Origin: Escherichia coli O157:H7
Lineage (GTDB): Bacteria; Pseudomonadota; Gammaproteobacteria; Enterobacterales; Enterobacteriaceae
Reading direction: 5' to 3' (one strand)
Assembly (NCBI RefSeq): GCF_013167455.1
Contig: NZ_CP038328.1
Length of the DNA stretch: 64,000 bases
Shown here: one piece after another, positions 4,086-50,646 of the stretch
Position numbering within the stretch: position 1 is the stretch's first letter
Layout: every line of letters starts with the position of its first letter
Made by a program: the position numbers and the translations under genes
The notes under the pieces: generated by a model
The model's input: only the letters and a program-made list of their open reading frames with translations
Databases searched by the model: none
What the model was told of the DNA's origin: nothing

Positions 4086-4976
4086 ATGGAACTACGGCAT
4101 TTACGCTATTTCGTCGCAGTGGCGCAGGCACTGAACTTTACCCGTGCGGCGGAAAAACTGCATACCTCACAGCCTTCGTTAAGCAGCCAGATCCGCGATC
4201 TTGAAAACTGTGTCGGTGTTCCGTTACTGGTGAGGGATAAGCGCAAAGTCGCGTTGACGGCGGCGGGAGAATGTTTTCTCCAGGACGCGCTGGCAATCCT
4301 CGAACAAGCGGAAAATGCCAAATTACGGGCGCGGAAAATTGTTCAGGAAGACAGACAATTAACCATTGGCTTTGTGCCATCGGCGGAAGTGAATTTACTG
4401 CCAAAAGTATTACCGATGTTTCGTCTCAGACAGCCAGACACCTTGATTGAGCTGGTGAGTTTAATCACCACGCAACAGGAGGAAAAAATTCGCCGTGGTG
4501 AACTCGACGTCGGCTTAATGCGCCATCCTGTTTATAGCCCGGAGATTGATTATCTGGAGCTTTTTGACGAACCATTAGTGGTGGTGTTACCGGTTGATCA
4601 CCCTTTAGCACATGAAAAAGAGATCACCGCCGCGCAACTGGATGGCGTGAATTTCGTCAGTACCGATCCGGCGTATTCCGGTTCGCTTGCGCCGATCGTT
4701 AAAGCGTGGTTTGCACAAGAAAACAGCCAGCCAAATATCGTCCAGGTGGCAACGAATATTCTGGTGACCATGAATCTGGTGGGCATGGGGCTGGGCGTCA
4801 CTTTGATACCCGGTTATATGAATAATTTTAATACCGGGCAGGTTGTTTTTCGTCCCATTGCCGGAAATGTGCCTTCCATTGCTTTACTGATGGCGTGGAA
4901 GAAAGGGGAGATGAAGCCGGCATTACGCGATTTCATCGCCATTGTGCAGGAACGTTTGGCAAGCGTAACGGCATAA
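4086..4976 (+). CDS. hcaR: LysR-type transcriptional activator of the hca operon
   Basis: ORF track frame 3993..4976; chosen start MELRHLRYFVAVAQ (LysR HTH) at 4086 gives 296 aa; divergent from hcaE. Confidence 0.9.
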   Translation: MELRHLRYFVAVAQALNFTRAAEKLHTSQPSLSSQIRDLENCVGVPLLVRDKRKVALTAAGECFLQDALAILEQAENAKLRARKIVQEDRQLTIGFVPSAEVNLLPKVLPMFRLRQPDTLIELVSLITTQQEEKIRRGELDVGLMRHPVYSPEIDYLELFDEPLVVVLPVDHPLAHEKEITAAQLDGVNFVSTDPAYSGSLAPIVKAWFAQENSQPNIVQVATNILVTMNLVGMGLGVTLIPGYMNNFNTGQVVFRPIAGNVPSIALLMAWKKGEMKPALRDFIAIVQERLASVTA

Positions 4977-25185: not shown

Positions 25186-27498
25186 ATGCCTCGCTTGTTA
25201 ACCAAACGCGGCTGCTGGATAACGCTGGCAGCTGCGCCATTTCTCCTTTTTCTTGCAGCGTGGGGAGCAGATAAACTCTGGCCTCTACCGCTGCATGAAG
25301 TCAATCCCGCACGAGTGGTCGTGGCGCAGGATGGTACGCCGCTCTGGCGCTTCGCCGATGCTGACGGCATCTGGCGTTATCCTGTAACAATCGAAGATGT
25401 TTCTCCACGTTACCTTGAAGCGCTGATCAATTATGAAGATCGCTGGTTCTGGAAGCATCCTGGGGTGAATCCATTCTCGGTGGCGCGCGCAGCATGGCAA
25501 GATCTCACTTCGGGACGGGTTATTTCCGGTGGCAGCACGCTCACTATGCAGGTTGCTCGTCTGCTTGATCCTCACCCCAAAACATTTGGCGGCAAAATTC
25601 GCCAGCTCTGGCGCGCGTTGCAACTGGAATGGCATCTGTCTAAGCGTGAAATTCTGACCTTGTATCTTAACCGCGCTCCGTTTGGCGGTACGTTGCAGGG
25701 GATCGGTGCGGCAAGTTGGGCTTATCTCGGAAAGTCGCCTGCGAATTTAAGCTATTCCGAGGCGGCAATGCTGGCGGTTTTGCCGCAAGCGCCCAGCCGT
25801 CTTCGCCCGGATCGTTGGCCGGAGCGTGCCGAAGTCGCGCGTAATAAAGTGCTCGAACGGATGGCCGTGCAAGGTGTGTGGTCCCGTGAGCAGGTAAAAG
25901 AGTCAAGGGAAGAACCCATCTGGCTGGCACCCCGACAAATGCCGCAACTGGCACCGCTGTTTTCGCGCATGATGCTCGGTAAAAGCAAAAGCGACAAAAT
26001 CGTTACTACGCTGGATGCCGGTCTTCAACGACGTCTGGAAGAACTGGCGCAAAACTGGAAAGGACGATTACCACCGCGCAGCTCACTGGCGATGATCGTG
26101 GTTGATCATACCGATATGCGTGTTCGCGGCTGGGTGGGTTCGGTTGATCTCAACGATGATTCACGCTTTGGTCATGTTGATATGGTCAATGCGATCCGAT
26201 CGCCAGGATCGGTGCTCAAACCGTTTGTTTACGGTCTGGCGCTGGATGAAGGATTGATCCACCCGGCATCACTGCTGCAAGACGTCCCCCGGCGTACCGG
26301 TGATTACCGACCTGGCAACTTTGACAGCGGTTTTCATGGCCCGATCAGCATGAGCGAGGCGCTGGTGCGCTCGCTGAATTTACCTGCTGTGCAGGTGCTG
26401 GAAGCCTATGGACCGAAACGGTTTGCGGCAAAGTTACGCAATGTTGGATTGCCGTTATATTTGCCCAACGGTGCTGCGCCGAATCTTTCGCTCATTCTCG
26501 GCGGCGCTGGTGCGAAACTGGAAGATATGGCGGCAGCGTATACCGCGTTTGCTCGCCACGGCAAGGCAGGCAAATTGCGCTTACAGCCTGACGATCCGCT
26601 GCTTGAACGGCCTTTAATGTCGTCGGGAGCGGCGTGGATCATTCGCCGGATTATGGCTGATGAAGCGCTACCCTTGCCGGATGGTGCCTTGCCGCGCGTC
26701 GCCCCACTGGCATGGAAAACGGGCACCAGCTATGGCTATCGTGACGCCTGGGCGATTGGGGTTAACGCTCGCTATGTCATTGGGATCTGGACTGGCAGAC
26801 CGGACGGCACGCCCGTTGTTGGTCAGTTTGGTTTTGCCAGCGCCGTACCATTGTTGAATCAGGTCAATAATATCTTACTGTCGCGCAGTGCTAATCTGCC
26901 GGAAGACCCGCGCCCGAACTCAGTCACTCGTGGCGTTATTTGCTGGCCGGGCGGACAGTCTTTGCCGGAAGGTGACGGTAACTGTCGCCGCCGCCTGGCA
27001 ACCTGGCTGCTGGACGGGAGTCAGCCGCCAACTCTATTACTGCCGGAGCAGGAAGGCATTAATGGCATTCGTTTCCCCATCTGGCTGGATGAAAATGGCA
27101 AACGTGTTGCCGCTGATTGCCCGCAAGCGCGACAAGAAATGATAAATGTCTGGCCGCTACCGCTGGAACCCTGGTTGCCCGCATCAGAACGTCGCGCTGT
27201 GCGCTTACCACCGGCCTCGACAATTTGCCCGCCATACGGTCACGATGCCCAGCTCCCGCTGCAGCTGACAGGCGTTCGCGATGGCGAGATTATTAAACGT
27301 TTACCGGGCGCAGCGGAAGCGACTTTGCCGTTGCAATCAAGTGGAGGGGCAGGTGAACGCTGGTGGTTTCTGAATGGCGAACCGTTAACTGAACGCGGGC
27401 GCAACGTGACCCTGCATTTGACGGATAAAGGTGATTATCAATTGCTGGTGATGGATGACGTAGGGCAAATCGCGTCAGTACATTTTTCATTTCAGTGA
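25186..27498 (+). CDS. pbpC: Penicillin-binding protein 1C (bifunctional transglycosylase/transpeptidase)
   Basis: 770 aa ORF starting immediately after yfhM stop (taaATG); glycosyltransferase motifs EDRWFW and RQLWRALQLE. Confidence 0.93.
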   Translation: MPRLLTKRGCWITLAAAPFLLFLAAWGADKLWPLPLHEVNPARVVVAQDGTPLWRFADADGIWRYPVTIEDVSPRYLEALINYEDRWFWKHPGVNPFSVARAAWQDLTSGRVISGGSTLTMQVARLLDPHPKTFGGKIRQLWRALQLEWHLSKREILTLYLNRAPFGGTLQGIGAASWAYLGKSPANLSYSEAAMLAVLPQAPSRLRPDRWPERAEVARNKVLERMAVQGVWSREQVKESREEPIWLAPRQMPQLAPLFSRMMLGKSKSDKIVTTLDAGLQRRLEELAQNWKGRLPPRSSLAMIVVDHTDMRVRGWVGSVDLNDDSRFGHVDMVNAIRSPGSVLKPFVYGLALDEGLIHPASLLQDVPRRTGDYRPGNFDSGFHGPISMSEALVRSLNLPAVQVLEAYGPKRFAAKLRNVGLPLYLPNGAAPNLSLILGGAGAKLEDMAAAYTAFARHGKAGKLRLQPDDPLLERPLMSSGAAWIIRRIMADEALPLPDGALPRVAPLAWKTGTSYGYRDAWAIGVNARYVIGIWTGRPDGTPVVGQFGFASAVPLLNQVNNILLSRSANLPEDPRPNSVTRGVICWPGGQSLPEGDGNCRRRLATWLLDGSQPPTLLLPEQEGINGIRFPIWLDENGKRVAADCPQARQEMINVWPLPLEPWLPASERRAVRLPPASTICPPYGHDAQLPLQLTGVRDGEIIKRLPGAAEATLPLQSSGGAGERWWFLNGEPLTERGRNVTLHLTDKGDYQLLVMDDVGQIASVHFSFQ

Positions 27499-27592
27499 AA
27501 TATACAAAATATTTATTAATCTAATTATGGTATTTATATTTGGAATGCATTAATAATTTAATAATCTCACGTTTTTTTAAACGACTAATTAT

Positions 27593-27606
27593 TTGATTGT
27601 TATCAG
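27593..27606 (+). promoter_or_regulatory. FNR-like box upstream of the accessory molybdoenzyme operon
   Basis: TTGATtgttATCAg matches the FNR consensus TTGAT-N4-ATCAA at 9 of 10 positions, about 56 bp upstream of the ATG at 27662, inside an AT-rich intergenic region. Confidence 0.5.
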
Positions 27607-27661
27607 CATTGTTCTCGAATAAATACGTGAATATTTATTTTTTCATTTTCGGGAACGCAAG

Positions 27662-30043
27662 ATGGATACGCCAGACGAAAAGGAACGCATTACATTTCCG
27701 CAAGTATCACGACGTAGTTTTTTACAAGCGACTTCCGCGCTTATCACTTTGCCTTTTATTTCTTCTACCGCAAAGGCGCAATCCCCAGATGCGTCGCCAG
27801 AAGTTACAGCTCCAGTAGCTGATAAAGTCGTGCCCACCTGTAGCACATTTGACTGCGGTGGTAAGTGCGATATTCGGGCGCATATGCGCGACGGCGTGGT
27901 GACGCAAATTACCACGCTTCCCGATAACGAATTGGATCCACAAATGCCGATTATGCGCGCCTGTGTTCGTGGTCGCGGCTATCGTAAATTTGTTTATCAT
28001 CCAGACCGTTTGAAATATCCGATGAAGCGGGTAGGTAAACGAGGCGAGGGTAAATTTGAGCGTATCTCATGGGATGAGGCGACGACCTTAATTGCCGATA
28101 ACCTGAAAAGGATCACGCAACAATATGGCCCAGCTTCACGTTATGTCCATGTCGGGACGGCTGTTTCTGGTGGAACATTTTCTGGCGATGCGATGGCGCG
28201 TCGGCTGTTAAATTTAACCGGTGGTTATCTTGAATATTATCACTCAGTTAGTCTGGGTAATACTGCGGCGGCCACGCCTTACACGTATGGCGTGGCCGCG
28301 AGCGGTAACTCGATGGATACTCTTCTGGATACCAAACTGGTGATTCTCTGGGGGCATAACCCAACGGAAACCATATTCGGTCACACCAATTACTATTTTC
28401 AAAAAATGAAGCAAAACGGTACACGTTTTATCGTGGTGGATCCGCGCTATTCCGACACCGTATCTTCACTTGCCGATCAGTGGATCCCGCTGTTGCCGAC
28501 CACGGACAATGCGTTGATGGACGCGATGATGTACGTCATTATCAGCGAGAATCTCCACGATAAGACATTTATCGACACATATACTCTCGGTTTTGATGAA
28601 AACTCCATGCCGGAAGGCGTACCAGCCAACGAATCGTTGGTTGCCTACCTTTTTGGCGCAAAAGATGGGATACACAAAACGCCGGAATGGGCAGAAAAAA
28701 TTACCCACGTTCCAGCACAATCCATTCGTCAACTGGCACGCGATTACGCCACTACAAAACCCGCAGCGTTGATTCAGGGATGGGGGCCACAGCGACATAT
28801 TTGCGGCGAACGCACCGCCCGAGGTTCAACTTTACTGGCCTCGATTACCGGTAACGTCGGCATCAAAGGTGGCTGGGCGGCAGGTTACGGCGGTAGTTCT
28901 AATCGTAAATTCTGCGTTGGACCAGATATGCCAGAAAATCCGGTACAAGCGAAAATCTCGATTATGAACTGGATGCAGGCGGCGGATGATGCTTCTAAAG
29001 TTACGCCGCAAGATGGGCTTAAAGGTGTCGATAAACTCGACAGTAATATCCGCCTGCTGTTCTCACTGGCAGGTAATTATCTGGCGAACCAGAACCCGGA
29101 CGTCCACCAGGCCGCGAAGCTCCTTGAAGACGAATCTAAAATAGAATTCATCGTACTCAGCGATCTGTTCATGACTCCGAGCGCGAAATATGCCGATGTG
29201 TTGCTGCCGGAAACCAGCTTTATGGAACGCTGGAATATCGGCGAAACATGGGGAACTGCGAGCTATCTTATTCTGTCAGAAAAACCGATTGAGCCGGATT
29301 TTGAACGTCGCACCGATTATGACTGGTTGCGTGACGTGGCGAAAAAACTGGGTGTCGAAGCCGAGTTCAGTCAAGGACGTGATGAGAAGCAATGGATCGA
29401 GCATATCTGGGAGCAAACTCGTCTGGCGATGCCGGATGAAAATTTGCCGGACTTCGCAACCCTGCAAAAAACACGTCGACATCTTTTCAAAAGCGCGCCG
29501 CACATCGCTTTCGAAGCAAATATTCGCGATCCGCAGAATAATCCTTTCCCGACGCCTTCCGGCAAAATTGAGATCTTCTCTAAGCGTCTTTTTGATATGC
29601 AAGATCCAGAAATTCCCGCGCTTTCGCACTATGTCCCTGCCTTTGAAGGGCCAGAAGATAAACTGACGGCGAAATACCCGTTGCAGCTCATCACCTGGAA
29701 AGGGAAAAACCGTGCTAATTCCACCCAGTATGCTAACCCGTGGCTGCAAGAAGTTCAGACGCAAAAACTCTGGCTGAATCCGCAAGATGCAAAACAGCGC
29801 GGGATTAGCGAAGGAGATAGCGTAAAAATTTATAACGATCGTGGTGTGAGCATTATCCCGGTGGAAATAATCCCCCGTATCATCCCTGGCGTAGTTGCTA
29901 TGCAGGCGGGGGCATGGTGGCAACCGGATGCACAAGGTATCGATCGCGGAGGCTGTGCCAATGTACTGAGTTCGACCCGCATTACGGCGCTGGCGAAAGG
30001 GAATTCGCATCAAACAATGCTGGTGGAGGTTGAGAAAGCATGA
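27662..30043 (+). CDS. Tat-exported Mo-bisMGD oxidoreductase catalytic subunit, DMSO reductase (DmsA/YnfE) family; substrate unknown
   Basis: 793 aa ORF; twin-arginine signal SRRSFLQ...AKAQ; N-terminal Cys cluster CSTFDCGGKCD; block ACVRGRGYRKFVYHPDRLKYPMKRVGKRGEGKFERISWDEA nearly matches DmsA as recalled; ATGA overlap with next gene. Confidence 0.85.
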   Translation: MDTPDEKERITFPQVSRRSFLQATSALITLPFISSTAKAQSPDASPEVTAPVADKVVPTCSTFDCGGKCDIRAHMRDGVVTQITTLPDNELDPQMPIMRACVRGRGYRKFVYHPDRLKYPMKRVGKRGEGKFERISWDEATTLIADNLKRITQQYGPASRYVHVGTAVSGGTFSGDAMARRLLNLTGGYLEYYHSVSLGNTAAATPYTYGVAASGNSMDTLLDTKLVILWGHNPTETIFGHTNYYFQKMKQNGTRFIVVDPRYSDTVSSLADQWIPLLPTTDNALMDAMMYVIISENLHDKTFIDTYTLGFDENSMPEGVPANESLVAYLFGAKDGIHKTPEWAEKITHVPAQSIRQLARDYATTKPAALIQGWGPQRHICGERTARGSTLLASITGNVGIKGGWAAGYGGSSNRKFCVGPDMPENPVQAKISIMNWMQAADDASKVTPQDGLKGVDKLDSNIRLLFSLAGNYLANQNPDVHQAAKLLEDESKIEFIVLSDLFMTPSAKYADVLLPETSFMERWNIGETWGTASYLILSEKPIEPDFERRTDYDWLRDVAKKLGVEAEFSQGRDEKQWIEHIWEQTRLAMPDENLPDFATLQKTRRHLFKSAPHIAFEANIRDPQNNPFPTPSGKIEIFSKRLFDMQDPEIPALSHYVPAFEGPEDKLTAKYPLQLITWKGKNRANSTQYANPWLQEVQTQKLWLNPQDAKQRGISEGDSVKIYNDRGVSIIPVEIIPRIIPGVVAMQAGAWWQPDAQGIDRGGCANVLSSTRITALAKGNSHQTMLVEVEKA

Positions 30044-30669
30044 GCCAATTTAAAGAATTTGCATCTGTCAGCGACAAACAATTAGGGTTCTTTATTGACT
30101 CTTCGCGTTGTTCGGGCTGTAAAGCGTGTCAGGTGGCCTGTAAAGACAAAAACAACCTTGAGGTTGGGCGACGTTTTCGCCGCGTGTATGAAGTGAACGG
30201 AGGTGGCTTCATCGCCACTGGAGAGGGCGGTGTGAGTCATAATGTCTTTGCTTATACCCTTTCTGTTTCCTGTAACCATTGCGCGGATCCGATCTGTACC
30301 AAAAATTGCCCGACGATGGCGATGCATAAGCGTCCCGGAGACGGTATTGTGCGCGTGAATACTGATAAGTGCGTCGGTTGCGGTTACTGCGCCTGGTCCT
30401 GTCCTTACGGCGCACCACAAATGAATGAGCAGACCGGGCAGATGTCGAAATGCGATTTCTGTATTGATCTGCAAGCTAAAGGAGAACAACCCATTTGCGT
30501 GGCAACGTGCCCGTTGGGGGCGATTAAGTTCGGCCCTATTGATGAGTTGCGTGAAAAGTATGGCGATGTCAGTGATGTGAAAGGTTTACCTGATTCGTCG
30601 ATTACGCAGCCAAATCTGGTGATTAAACCGCATCAGGGCGCGGAAAAGGAGGCGTCACATCATGCATGA
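30040..30669 (+). CDS. Four-cluster [4Fe-4S] electron-transfer subunit, DmsB/YnfG family
   Basis: 209 aa ORF with four ferredoxin Cys motifs (CSGCKACQVAC, CNHCADPICTKNCP, CVGCGYCAWSCP, CDFC...CVATCP); GGAGG Shine-Dalgarno; overlaps neighbours. Confidence 0.85.
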   Translation: MSQFKEFASVSDKQLGFFIDSSRCSGCKACQVACKDKNNLEVGRRFRRVYEVNGGGFIATGEGGVSHNVFAYTLSVSCNHCADPICTKNCPTMAMHKRPGDGIVRVNTDKCVGCGYCAWSCPYGAPQMNEQTGQMSKCDFCIDLQAKGEQPICVATCPLGAIKFGPIDELREKYGDVSDVKGLPDSSITQPNLVIKPHQGAEKEASHHA

Positions 30670-31483
30670 ATTACCGTTAATGGCTTTTACGCTGTTGTTA
30701 CAGGCATCGGTCGGTATGACGTTGTGGCTGGCGTTTCTTCATCGTCATATTTTAATCACCTCCAGCGCCCGCCCGGTTATGCGGCCGCCATTACTGTTGG
30801 CTTTTTTGGCAGGTGCCGTAGGGTTACTGATTTCTACCTTACACCTGGGTTATCCACTTAATGCGATGCATGCGCTGAGCCACTTTTCCAGTTCATGGCT
30901 GAGTCGGGAAATTATCTTTGGTGCGCTGTATCTGGCGCTATTGGGTTTATCCACATTACTGGTCATGTTACGCAAAGGCGGCTGGCAACTCCTGCTTATG
31001 CTAGCGGCAGTGGTCGGGATTGTTGATGTTTTCTGCATGGCGCAAGTTTACATCCATACGTCGATTATCACCTGGCAGCATTACAACACGCTGATTATGT
31101 TCTTAGGTACAGTGGGAATTCTCGGTTCAGCGCTGGTAGCAGTGTTTCGTATTAGCGGAATTTTGCCGCAGATTGATGCCCTGCGTAATGGATGCGTGTT
31201 GGTGATCGCTCTCCTGGTTCTGCTGCGTTTGTTGGTTCAGCCGTTGTGGATAGGGGATTTAACGGCAAATGCGATGCAGATAGCCACATTGCCACATGCG
31301 CCATTAGCGATGCTGGGACAGTTAAAACCCATACTGACACTAAGCTGGGGAATTTCCGTCATTGGGATGATGTTCTTTGCTGTCGGTGGTTGTAAAAAGA
31401 ATATCCCGGCGGCGTTATTCGGTAGCGTAATGCTAGTGGGGAGTGAAGTTATGCTGCGTTTTGTCTTTTTTAGTATCGGCTAA
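30662..31483 (+). CDS. Integral membrane anchor subunit, DmsC/YnfH family
   Basis: 273 aa ORF with about 8 hydrophobic segments; AGGAGG Shine-Dalgarno; 8 bp overlap with upstream gene and TAATG overlap with downstream gene. Confidence 0.75.
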   Translation: MHELPLMAFTLLLQASVGMTLWLAFLHRHILITSSARPVMRPPLLLAFLAGAVGLLISTLHLGYPLNAMHALSHFSSSWLSREIIFGALYLALLGLSTLLVMLRKGGWQLLLMLAAVVGIVDVFCMAQVYIHTSIITWQHYNTLIMFLGTVGILGSALVAVFRISGILPQIDALRNGCVLVIALLVLLRLLVQPLWIGDLTANAMQIATLPHAPLAMLGQLKPILTLSWGISVIGMMFFAVGGCKKNIPAALFGSVMLVGSEVMLRFVFFSIG

Positions 31484-32337
31484 TGTTAAGTCATAACATA
31501 ACGATTGGCGCGGAATGCGCGCGCCAACGCTTTCGTTTTGCAACATGTCATGCCTGTGTCGAGGCTTGCCCGGCACAGGCGCTAACGCTGACAGAAGAGG
31601 GCATAGCGGTCGACGCGGAACAATGTATTGATTGTGCGGTTTGCCAGTTTATTTGTCCGCAAGAGGCTATTCGTGGCGTTAATTCCCCTTTACGTTATTT
31701 TTGCAATCACACCCTGGTCGCACCTTTCACCACTATTGCGCCGACGCTGGAAGAACTTTTGCTATGGCATAAAGAGCAGGGGATCACAGCGATCGCGATT
31801 GATCTGAGTCAGGCGAAGGCATGGGAGCGCGCATTATTGCTGTTAAACGAATGCTTACGGCAATATGGCGAGGAAGGCTGGTCTGTGGTATCTCCACATA
31901 CCAGTGAGGTGAATGTTTCCCGGCGTCGTTTGTTCCATGTGCAGCGTGCGGATGTTCAGATGACACAAATACAACCAGGATTACGTCGGTTACATTATTT
32001 ATGGCCCCAGATTAGTGATGCTCGCCCGATGATGGATCCTCAAAAGTGTCAGCTTTGCGGTGCATGCTGGCGGGCCTGCGAGCAACAGGTCTTTTCGCTT
32101 AACGAAGGCCATTTACAAATAAATGATGCCTTGTGTAACGGATGCCAAAATTGTATTGCTGTTTGTTTTCATCAGGCAATGACCGTTGAATTGACGATTC
32201 TACCGGCAAAAATTGTGAATCTTCATGCTAATCGCAAAGTCTGTAAAACCTGTCAAAAATCCTTTCTTACTTTTCAGCAAAATGCGCAAAATTGTCTTTA
32301 TTGCCAACGTCATCGTTATGGGATGAGAACACCATAA
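31483..32337 (+). CDS. Cysteine-rich polyferredoxin-like protein (NapF/iron-sulfur maturation-like?), function unknown
   Basis: 284 aa ORF, no signal peptide; motifs CHACVEACP, CIDCAVCQFICP, CQLCGACWRACE, CNGCQNCIAVC, plus C-terminal CKTC-x13-CLYC; translationally coupled to the membrane subunit. Confidence 0.7.
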   Translation: MLSHNITIGAECARQRFRFATCHACVEACPAQALTLTEEGIAVDAEQCIDCAVCQFICPQEAIRGVNSPLRYFCNHTLVAPFTTIAPTLEELLLWHKEQGITAIAIDLSQAKAWERALLLLNECLRQYGEEGWSVVSPHTSEVNVSRRRLFHVQRADVQMTQIQPGLRRLHYLWPQISDARPMMDPQKCQLCGACWRACEQQVFSLNEGHLQINDALCNGCQNCIAVCFHQAMTVELTILPAKIVNLHANRKVCKTCQKSFLTFQQNAQNCLYCQRHRYGMRTP

Positions 32338-32477
32338 AAGTCGAGTTGTTGCTAAAACTCATTTTATTTTAAAAAAATGTTACCTTCATCAATAGTCAAC
32401 GGCTCTGTTGCTCATTATAATCCGCGCCATCTCGTACGCTGGTACAGACAACAACAGAACAATTTACAGAGGTAAAA

Positions 32478-32909
32478 ATGGCTATTGAACGTACTTTTTC
32501 CATTATCAAACCGAACGCGGTAGCAAAAAACGTCATTGGTAATATCTTTGCGCGCTTTGAAGCTGCAGGGTTCAAAATTGTCGGCACCAAAATGCTGCAC
32601 CTGACCGTTGAACAGGCACGTGGCTTTTATGCTGAACACGATGGAAAACCGTTCTTTGATGGTCTGGTTGAATTCATGACCTCTGGCCCGATCGTGGTTT
32701 CCGTGCTGGAAGGTGAAAACGCCGTTCAGCGTCACCGCGATCTGCTGGGCGCGACCAATCCGGCAAACGCACTGGCCGGTACTCTGCGCGCTGATTACGC
32801 TGACAGCCTGACCGAAAACGGTACCCACGGTTCTGATTCCGTCGAATCTGCCGCTCGCGAAATCGCTTATTTCTTCGGCGAAGGCGAAGTGTGCCCGCGC
32901 ACCCGTTAA
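32478..32909 (+). CDS. ndk: Nucleoside diphosphate kinase
   Basis: 143 aa [24 protein letters not shown] with active-site NGTHGSDS. Confidence 0.95.
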
Positions 32910-48261: not shown

Positions 48262-48275
48262 TTGATATATATCAA
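48262..48275 (+). promoter_or_regulatory. Consensus FNR box upstream of pdeF
   Basis: TTGATatatATCAA is an exact match to TTGAT-N4-ATCAA, in the AT-rich divergent region between yfgG and pdeF. Confidence 0.65.
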
Positions 48276-48402
48276 TTGGAACTTTCATATGACACTTAGA
48301 ATCAATGCTCTCTATAGTGATGAATAATCATCATTCGAAGTCAGGTGGGATGCCTGTCTGAATACACCTCCTTCAGGATGTGGGGGATTCTGCTGAGCAT
48401 CT

Positions 48403-50646
48403 ATGAAACTGAATGCAACTTATATAAAAATACGTGATAAATGGTGGGGGCTTCCGCTGTTCCTGCCTTCTTTAATCTTGCCCATTTTCGCCCACATTAA
48501 TACTTTCGCGCATATTTCTTCCGGTGAGGTTTTTCTCTTTTATCTGCCTCTGGCACTGATGATCAGCATGATGATGTTTTTCAGCTGGGCGGCATTGCCA
48601 GGGATCGCCTTAGGGATTTTTGTCCGCAAATATGCAGAGCTGGGTTTTTACGAAACGCTCTCATTAACGGCTAATTTTATTATCATTATCATTCTCTGTT
48701 GGGGCGGTTACAGGGTCTTTACTCCCCGGCGTAACAACGTTTCACATGGTGATACCCGTTTAATTTCCCAGCGTATATTCTGGCAGATTGTGTTTCCTGC
48801 AACGCTGTTTCTGATACTTTTCCAGTTTGCTGCATTTGTAGGATTACTGGCGAGCAGAGAAAATCTGGTTGGCGTCATGCCTTTTAATCTCGGGACCTTA
48901 ATCAATTATCAGGCCTTACTGGTGGGCAATCTGATTGGTGTCCCGCTGTGCTACTTCATCATTCGGGTAGTGCGAAATCCGTTTTATTTACGTAGTTATT
49001 ATTCGCAATTAAAACAGCAGGTTGATGTCAAAGTCACCAAAAAAGAGTTCGCACTCTGGCTGCTGGCATTAGGTGCTTTACTGTTGCTGTTATGCATGCC
49101 GTTAAATGAAAAAAGCACAATTTTTAGCACCAATTATACCTTGTCATTATTGCTGCCCCTGATGATGTGGGGAGCGATGCGCTATGGTTATAAGCTGATT
49201 TCGCTGCTCTGGGCGGTCGTGTTGATGATCAGCATCCACAGCTATCAAAATTACATTCCCATTTATCCTGGCTATACCACGCAGCTGACCATAACCTCCT
49301 CCAGTTATCTGGTATTCTCTTTTATTGTCAATTATATGGCTGTACTGGCAACCCGTCAGAGAACGGTAGTCAGACGCATTCAGCGCCTTGCGTATGTGGA
49401 CCCGGTGGTTCATCTGCCAAATGTTCGCGCCCTGAATCGCGCGTTGCGTGATGCCCCCTGGTCTGCGCTTTGTTATTTACGCATCCCTGGCATGGAAATG
49501 CTGGTTAAAAACTATGGCATCATGCTGCGGATTCAATACAAGCAAAAACTTTCTCACTGGCTGTCACCCTTGCTGGAACCAGGTGAAGATGTTTATCAGC
49601 TTTCGGGTAACGATCTCGCGCTGCGACTGAATACAGAATCGCACCAGGAGCGCATTACCGCACTGGATAGCCATCTCAAGCAATTTCGTTTCTTTTGGGA
49701 TGGCATGCCGATGCAACCGCAGATTGGCGTCAGTTACTGCTATGTGCGCTCGCCAGTGAATCATATCTACCTGCTGCTGGGAGAGCTAAATACGGTCGCC
49801 GAACTTTCCATCGTGACCAACGCCCCGGAAAATATGCAGCGTCGCGGGGCAATGTATTTGCAACGCGAATTGAAAGATAAAGTCGCGATGATGAATCGAC
49901 TACAGCAGGCGCTGGAACACAACCATTTTTTCCTGATGGCCCAGCCGATTACCGGTATGCGTGGTGATGTTTACCATGAAATTCTTCTGCGCATGAAAGG
50001 TGAGAATGATGAACTAATCGGCCCCGATAGCTTCTTGCCGGTCGCGCACGAATTTGGTTTATCGTCGAGTATCGACATGTGGGTCATTGAGCATACGCTG
50101 CAATTTATGGCTGAAAACAGAGCGAAGATGCCCGCTCACCGTTTTGCTATTAATCTGTCTCCAACCTCGGTATGTCAGGCTCGTTTTCCTGTTGAAGTCA
50201 GTCAGTTGCTGGATAAATATCAGATTGAAGCGTGGCAACTTATTTTTGAAGTCACCGAAAGTAATGCTCTGACCAATGTTAAGCAGGCGCAAATCACCTT
50301 GCAGCATCTTCAGGAATTAGGCTGCCAGATTGCGATTGATGATTTCGGCACCGGCTACGCCAGCTATGCGCGGCTTAAAAATGTGAATGCCGATCTGCTT
50401 AAAATTGACGGCAGTTTTATCCGCAATATTGTGTCAAATAGTCTGGATTATCAGATAGTGGCATCGATTTGCCACCTGGCGCGAATGAAGAAAATGCGGG
50501 TAGTGGCAGAGTACGTTGAAAACGAAGAGATCCGCGAGGCGGTGCTCTCTTTGGGGATCGATTATATGCAGGGTTATCTTATTGGTAAGCCGCAACCGTT
50601 AATTGATACGCTGAATGAAATCGAACCCATTCGCGAAAGTGCCTGA
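48403..50646 (+). CDS. pdeF: Membrane-bound c-di-GMP phosphodiesterase (MASE1, degenerate GGDEF, EAL)
   Basis: 747 aa ORF; multi-pass N-terminal half; EAL-domain signature in C-terminal half. Confidence 0.9.
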   Translation: MKLNATYIKIRDKWWGLPLFLPSLILPIFAHINTFAHISSGEVFLFYLPLALMISMMMFFSWAALPGIALGIFVRKYAELGFYETLSLTANFIIIIILCWGGYRVFTPRRNNVSHGDTRLISQRIFWQIVFPATLFLILFQFAAFVGLLASRENLVGVMPFNLGTLINYQALLVGNLIGVPLCYFIIRVVRNPFYLRSYYSQLKQQVDVKVTKKEFALWLLALGALLLLLCMPLNEKSTIFSTNYTLSLLLPLMMWGAMRYGYKLISLLWAVVLMISIHSYQNYIPIYPGYTTQLTITSSSYLVFSFIVNYMAVLATRQRTVVRRIQRLAYVDPVVHLPNVRALNRALRDAPWSALCYLRIPGMEMLVKNYGIMLRIQYKQKLSHWLSPLLEPGEDVYQLSGNDLALRLNTESHQERITALDSHLKQFRFFWDGMPMQPQIGVSYCYVRSPVNHIYLLLGELNTVAELSIVTNAPENMQRRGAMYLQRELKDKVAMMNRLQQALEHNHFFLMAQPITGMRGDVYHEILLRMKGENDELIGPDSFLPVAHEFGLSSSIDMWVIEHTLQFMAENRAKMPAHRFAINLSPTSVCQARFPVEVSQLLDKYQIEAWQLIFEVTESNALTNVKQAQITLQHLQELGCQIAIDDFGTGYASYARLKNVNADLLKIDGSFIRNIVSNSLDYQIVASICHLARMKKMRVVAEYVENEEIREAVLSLGIDYMQGYLIGKPQPLIDTLNEIEPIRESA

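Follow-up and report, generated by a model that had tools for sequence, protein, structure and literature searches.

The question raised by this locus is how Escherichia coli O157:H7 controls a four-gene molybdoenzyme operon that K-12 does not have. The operon occupies positions 27662-32337 of the 64,000-nucleotide stretch of O157:H7 DNA that was analyzed here (the window). The first-pass annotation had placed a near-consensus FNR box at 27593-27606, about 56 bp upstream of the first ATG in an AT-rich region, and had proposed anaerobic, FNR-dependent expression. Our analysis makes it quite probable that this box is the FNR site of a class II FNR-activated σ70 promoter that drives the four genes. 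What we infer for O157 from sequence comparison is that FNR binds to the box, where transcription starts, and that oxygen controls the operon.

The operon is read from the + strand. Its first gene (27662-30043) encodes a catalytic A subunit of 793 residues with the twin-arginine signal SRRSFLQ, and the protein scores 1122 bits with the DMSO/selenate reductase subfamily model TIGR02166 (cut-off 778). The start of the second gene (30040-30669) overlaps the A stop codon; its product, an iron-sulfur B subunit of 209 residues, reaches the DmsB model TIGR02951 with 265.8 bits (cut-off 214.1). The third gene (30662-31483) overlaps the second and encodes a protein of 273 residues that carries the RefSeq name of a DmsC-type membrane anchor. 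The O157 anchor had no NCBIfam match, and PF04976 matches its Salmonella orthologue. The fourth gene (31483-32337), the start of which overlaps the stop codon of the anchor gene, encodes a protein of 284 residues named in RefSeq as a 4Fe-4S dicluster (ferredoxin-like) protein. All four reading frames are intact and of full length. The subfamily model, the DmsB model, the DmsC-type anchor and the twin-arginine leader together place the operon in the DmsABC/YnfEFGH type. The A subunit was also scored as DmsA, YnfE or YnfF and rejected as each of them, with 705, 668 and 692 bits against cut-offs of 1600, 1675 and 1650 (NF011566, NF041885 and NF041884, respectively). Judged by these scores, it is a distinct paralogue of the three. 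We must also note that several E. coli protein entries are 719-766 residues long, shorter than the 793-residue form, and that the start-codon calls are inconsistent.

Many O157 genomes match the window with 100% identity. Within the species, the operon was found in 379 of the 5426 complete E. coli genomes and was missing from 93% of them. In K-12 MG1655, the entire segment that begins directly past pbpC and ends shortly past the fourth gene is absent (window positions 27499 to ~ 32343), and the pbpC-ndk spacer of this strain corresponds to the O157 sequence that separates the fourth gene from ndk. Because the K-12 gap spans the promoter as well as the four genes, the AT-rich promoter with the box is part of an accessory module of ~ 4.85 kb, which occupies the same site in Salmonella. 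A horizontal-transfer signature was considered and rejected, as the G+C content of the operon is ≈ 50%, typical of E. coli, and only the promoter bins are AT-rich. No intrinsic terminator was predicted after pbpC (scan of 27300-27900) or after the fourth gene (scan of 32200-32600), so transcription may run through into the operon as well as beyond its end, and read-through from pbpC may contribute to its expression. A σ70-like promoter, TAGTCA-17-TATAAT, was observed at 32393-32421, 5′ of ndk.

The box itself reads TTGATTGTTATCAG on the + strand (27593-27606, centered at 27599.5) and matches TTGAT-N4-ATCAA at nine of the ten positions. The sole deviation is G27606, where the consensus has A, so that the promoter-proximal half-site is ATCAG and not ATCAA. 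The first ATG of the 793-residue frame, which is also the RefSeq start of the A-subunit gene, lies at 27662, 56 nt past the last base of the box (55 nt between). The box is situated within a spacer of 163 nt that extends from the pbpC stop codon, ending at 27498, to this ATG (27499-27661) and has a G+C content of 22%. The sequence, position, distance and AT-rich setting claimed in the first-pass annotation were thus all recovered. The substitution at 27606 affects the outermost base pair of the half-site, the T:A pair that Spiro et al. (1990) reportedly found to set FNR sites apart from CRP sites. Many functional FNR sites of E. coli are weaker than 9/10.

Matches to the consensus are not rare in the window. 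Scored by consensus matches only, with no FNR weight matrix, four sites had at most one mismatch, compared with 2.48 expected, and 24 of 100 shuffled sequences reached four; with two mismatches allowed, there were 46 sites and 32 expected. The count is not significant and, taken alone, gives no support to the FNR assignment. Two of the four sites lie within reading frames (14059 and 25034). The other two are intergenic and stand 5′ of a co-directional gene: one is the box of the O157 operon, and the second, at 48262, is that of yfgF.

The evidence that carries the assignment comes from the relatives of the operon. When one genome of each species was scanned for relatives of the A subunit, 80 loci with 67-99% identity were found, ranging from Escherichia to Proteus and Photorhabdus. 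Most of them have a perfect or near-perfect TTGAT-N4-ATCAA at an almost fixed distance 5′ of the gene. When the search window was set to 160 nt, a box of at least 9/10 was present in 31 of the 59 non-redundant orthologous promoters, compared with 0.9 expected from shuffles, and the palindrome was perfect in 29 distinct promoter sequences. Overall, the start of the box lay 102-138 nt from the twin-arginine codons; for most Enterobacteriaceae the distance was 114-117 nt, and one of them reached 134 nt. The gene pbpC stands upstream in Escherichia, Salmonella, Enterobacter, Superficieibacter, Huaxiibacter and one Lelliottia; all other loci have a different gene there. Since the upstream neighbor varies while the distance between box and gene is kept, the conservation of the box does not simply reflect shared ancestry of the whole region; on these comparisons, the box travels with the operon across genomic contexts. 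Among the genera that share the pbpC context, conservation in the alignment is confined to the box, a -10-like element and a short leader, and the stretch from pbpC to the box cannot be aligned at all. The box thus forms a conserved island, the footprint expected of a class II FNR promoter. In a paralogous clade of ~ 69% identity (the second Proteus copy, Providencia and Morganella morganii), no FNR box was found within 900 nt upstream. The upstream region of this clade is different and longer, and the clade is presumably regulated in another way.

The position of the -10 element was derived from 41 non-redundant promoters that were anchored on the box, leaving the flanking columns unselected. 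A nAnAAT signal emerged at offsets 36-41 from the box start, with A37 in 71%, A39 in 76%, A40 in 66% and T41 in 80% of the promoters, and a T-rich tract follows it. A hexamer with A at its second and T at its sixth position begins at offset 36 in 29 of the 41 promoters and at offsets 35 and 37 in eight each; any other offset between 25 and 55 has such a hexamer in 0-6 promoters. At offset 36, the hexamer is TATAAT in Limnobaculum, TATACT in Budvicia and GAGAAT in Salmonella and Enterobacter. In O157 the same alignment columns as GAGAAT hold GAATAT (27629-27634, +), the predicted -10 element, which also has A2 and T6 and begins 36 nt after the box start, leaving a gap of 22 nt between box and hexamer. 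It matches TATAAT at three of six positions and is weaker than the GAGAAT or TATAAT of the relatives.

The bases at the -35 position (GCATTG, 27606-27611), read by eye, match TTGACA at one position of six, and a σ70 scan of 27300-27900 found no complete promoter. This poor -35 region is typical of class II promoters, and the absence of a full σ70 promoter is expected where an activator site replaces the -35 element. The predicted -10 hexamer begins 29.5 nt past the center of the box, as expected for a site at -41.5 with a hexamer at -12, and this distance is within 1 nt of that in yfgF. With a start ~ 7 nt after the hexamer, the box would be centered at ~ -41.5 and transcription would begin near 27641. 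The predicted start region (27639-27643, +) was drawn from the -10 position and the yfgF layout. The predicted start lies in a run of T residues, with no purine in the usual start window (27638-27643); a T-rich tract at the expected start is conserved in the orthologues (offsets 45-54). The leader predicted from this start would be ~ 20 nt long. It includes GGGAA (27651-27655, +), a Shine-Dalgarno-like element 6 nt 5′ of the ATG that aligns with the conserved AAGGAA of the relatives. An Rfam search for a leader RNA or riboswitch (e.g. of the Moco type) gave no match down to E = 1. Conservation of the box beyond chance, the fixed 22-nt gap to a -10-like hexamer and the missing -35 element together argue for the reading of the box as an FNR site.

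The mechanism that we propose follows the class II pattern. In the absence of oxygen, dimeric [4Fe-4S]-FNR would bind to 27593-27606, where its site overlaps the place of the missing -35 hexamer, and would recruit RNA polymerase to the weak -10 element GAATAT (27629-27634). Transcription would then start from ~ 27641, with the box centered at ~ -41.5 and a leader of ~ 20 nt preceding the A-subunit gene.

An internal positive control is available in the same window. The perfect box TTGATATATATCAA at 48262-48275 is followed by TAGAAT at 48297-48302 (offset 35) and precedes a reading frame (48403-50646) for an EAL-domain protein of 747 residues that matches yfgF (pdeF). The yfgF promoter has been published as class II FNR-dependent, with its box at -41.5 and TAGAAT as -10 element. 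The promoter of the O157 operon resembles it in having a TTGAT-N4-ATCAA-type box and, 21-22 nt further on, an nAGAAT-type -10 element. The yfgF promoter differs in its 10/10 box, its better -10 element (TAGAAT) and its leader of ~ 90 nt as against ~ 20 nt, and yfgF is a core gene of unrelated function, encoding a c-di-GMP phosphodiesterase.

Other members of the class are well described. FNR is centered at -41.5 in dmsABC, narGHJI, nirB and nrfA, and between -40.5 and -42.5 in many other activated operons (PMC3688515). The operon studied here is like dmsABC in its A-B-C gene order, in the enzyme subfamily and in encoding a Tat-exported molybdoenzyme; the box of dmsABC stands at -41.5 and the operon is activated under anoxia. 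Unlike dmsABC, it has an A subunit that scores below the DmsA cut-off, a fourth, ferredoxin-like gene, and an accessory distribution in E. coli.

The closest known system is STM2530-2527 of Salmonella (STM14_3103-3100; ‘psr1’), a true orthologue with the same four genes at the same pbpC-to-ndk site. In S. enterica, the gene order is pbpC, the four genes and ndk, and the main protein cluster has 84% identity and 13,070 member sequences. In the S. enterica promoter, the box is the perfect TTGATAAATATCAA, and both it and the GAGAAT that follows keep the offsets seen in O157. Unlike O157, Salmonella thus has a perfect box and GAGAAT as -10, and it also has a NarL/NarP-like repeat of 11-12/14 directly upstream of the box. 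The 801-residue form of the Salmonella A subunit begins at an ATG (locus position 4501) that overlaps the predicted -10 element (GAGAATG) and lies upstream of the predicted transcription start; this start call is probably 8-9 codons too long. A 2025 preprint renamed STM14_3103 psr1A and claimed that it is a periplasmic sulfate reductase (PMC12636705) that protects against oxidative stress. The preprint, citing Fink et al. 2007, lists the dmsA paralogues, STM14_3103 included, with the loci that FNR activates most; this is a microarray result reported at second hand, and a microarray is no proof of direct control. Some aerobic expression of psr1A has also been reported (PMC12636705). One study saw no role of the Salmonella orthologue in DMSO-dependent growth; its substrate is disputed, and its regulation is debated as well.

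Control by nitrate appears to be a different matter in O157 and in the relatives. The first-pass annotation had seen no obvious NarL/NarP heptamer pair, and our search agrees: TACYYMT does not occur exactly in 27499-27661, and no 7-2-7 arrangement there scores above 9/14. The inverted pair of TACYYMT heptamers 2 bp apart that marks a NarL/NarP-controlled promoter was therefore not found in O157. The 9/14 repeat, TGTTCTC-GA-ATAAATA (27610-27625, +), lies between the box and the -10 element (offset +17) and retains only its right heptamer, ATAAATA; as a pair it probably has no function. At this position, Escherichia sp. MOD1 reaches 12/14, and Lelliottia, Pluralibacter, Silvania, Leclercia and Limnobaculum reach 12-13/14. 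Across the family, TACYYMT-NN-AKRRGTA with at least 12/14 occurs in 15 of the 41 orthologous promoters, compared with 1.0 expected from shuffles. In a control with permuted heptamers, two of 300 reached that count, and the top one, TAMYTCY-NN-RGARKTA, closely resembles the real palindrome.

The place of the repeat shifts between lineages. It lies 5′ of the box at -16 in Proteus (13/14), at -18 in Enterobacter (13/14) and Salmonella (11-12/14), at -23 in Budvicia, where it is perfect (14/14), and at -31 to -37 in Rahnella and Cedecea. Between the box and the -10 element, at +15 to +17, it was found in Silvania, Leclercia, Limnobaculum, Lelliottia, Pluralibacter and Escherichia sp. MOD1. NarL has a preference for 7-2-7 sites, and its repression of frdA works by blocking the access of FNR and RNA polymerase (PMC4549865). 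By analogy, a repeat between the box and the -10 element would be well placed to act in the same way, and in this respect the promoters of Leclercia, Silvania, Lelliottia, Pluralibacter and Limnobaculum are like those of the frdABCD type. Unlike these, the O157 repeat reaches only 9/14, and in other lineages the repeat stands 5′ of the box (offsets -16 to -37). The O157 promoter also lacks the heptamer pair that would be expected of a promoter like dmsA, which reportedly is repressed by nitrate through NarL (Bearson 2002). These patterns suggest that the promoters of this family may commonly respond to nitrate, a control that would have decayed in E. coli. As O157 has no 7-2-7 pair, anaerobic induction with little or no direct repression by nitrate would be expected.

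The box reads TTGATTGTTATCAG throughout E. coli, and in a cryptic Escherichia clade it is 8/10. Since the relatives mostly have a perfect palindrome, the Escherichia site is a weakened version; judged by consensus match, the G at the outer position of the proximal half-site leaves the box of O157 weaker than theirs. In E. coli strain 4FM, an IS1 element is inserted 5 bp 3′ of the box (locus position ~ 714-730, corresponding to 27611/27612 of the window) and parts the box from the -10 element and the operon. It could be argued from such signs that the box is a relic, too decayed for useful FNR binding or masked by H-NS or IHF, and that the operon is silent or is transcribed mainly by read-through (yfhM-pbpC) or from another promoter. 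The perfect palindromes of the relatives against 9/10 or 8/10 in all Escherichia fit this idea, as do a -10 element weaker than GAGAAT or TATAAT, the decayed NarL/NarP pair, the loss of the operon from 93% of the complete E. coli genomes, the IS1 that splits the promoter in one strain, and the lack of a predicted terminator after pbpC. Masking has precedents as well, since nucleoid proteins keep many good predicted sites silent: in K-12, 63 of 187 predicted sites were occupied, and ≈ 90% of the silent ones lay under H-NS, IHF or Fis (PMC3688515). The O157 spacer, at 22% G+C and with an IHF-like match at 27586-27598 that covers the left half-site, could be masked likewise. We nevertheless consider a relic, the main rival of our reading, unlikely. 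The box, its spacing and the A2 and T6 of the -10 element are invariant across E. coli lineages that otherwise differ in the spacer, all four reading frames are intact and full length, and a box of 9/10 is still near consensus.

That another regulator acts at the palindrome, be it CRP, IHF or YeiL (the third protein of the CRP/FNR family), or that FNR represses from it, is very unlikely. CRP and FNR sites are related, and 27592-27607 matches TGTGA-N6-TCACA at 7/10, but the core conserved in the orthologues is TTGA…TCAA and not GTGA…TCAC. The case for IHF is one exact consensus match at 27586-27598, overlapping the left half-site, which is not conserved outside Escherichia and was rejected as an IHF site. 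Consensus scans of the spacer for CRP, ArcA and ModE sites gave weak, AT-rich matches that were not conserved, and these were rejected too. As for repression, a site over the -35 position of a promoter that has no -35 hexamer is in the position of an activator, and the Salmonella orthologue is reported to be activated by FNR (PMC12636705). Finally, a chance match in AT-rich DNA with no function, which the window counts (four near-consensus sites against 2.5 expected, and 46 against 32 with two mismatches) would permit, is hardly credible given a position and sequence conserved over many genera and contexts (31/59 against 0.9 expected) and the fixed spacing to the -10 element.

An FNR-activated class II promoter is thus the reading that we retain for the O157 operon. 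The promoter adds to a very well known class, and the FNR dependence of the orthologue is already in the literature. A literature search under the presumed O157 locus tags found no publication on the O157 locus, and the operon is not treated in the comparative study of Ravcheev 2007. In most respects this is a routine, textbook-type assignment of a regulatory site. What it provides is a concrete promoter model, with box, -10 element and expected start, for an operon that sets O157:H7, along with certain other E. coli, apart from K-12. The probable wiring to FNR, apparently without NarL/NarP in E. coli, means that the enzyme is to be sought under strict anoxia and that nitrate is probably irrelevant. 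A more speculative view, which we put forward tentatively and regard as rather doubtful, is that of regulatory turnover, in which the box and the -10 element stayed fixed while the 7-2-7 repeat shifted between lineages and was lost in E. coli together with a weakening of the box, so that O157 would express the operon under anoxia without the nitrate repression of its relatives. If this is true, and if the claim that the Salmonella enzyme is a sulfate reductase that protects against oxidative stress holds, nitrate-independent expression could matter in the nitrate-rich inflamed gut or in the bovine gut.
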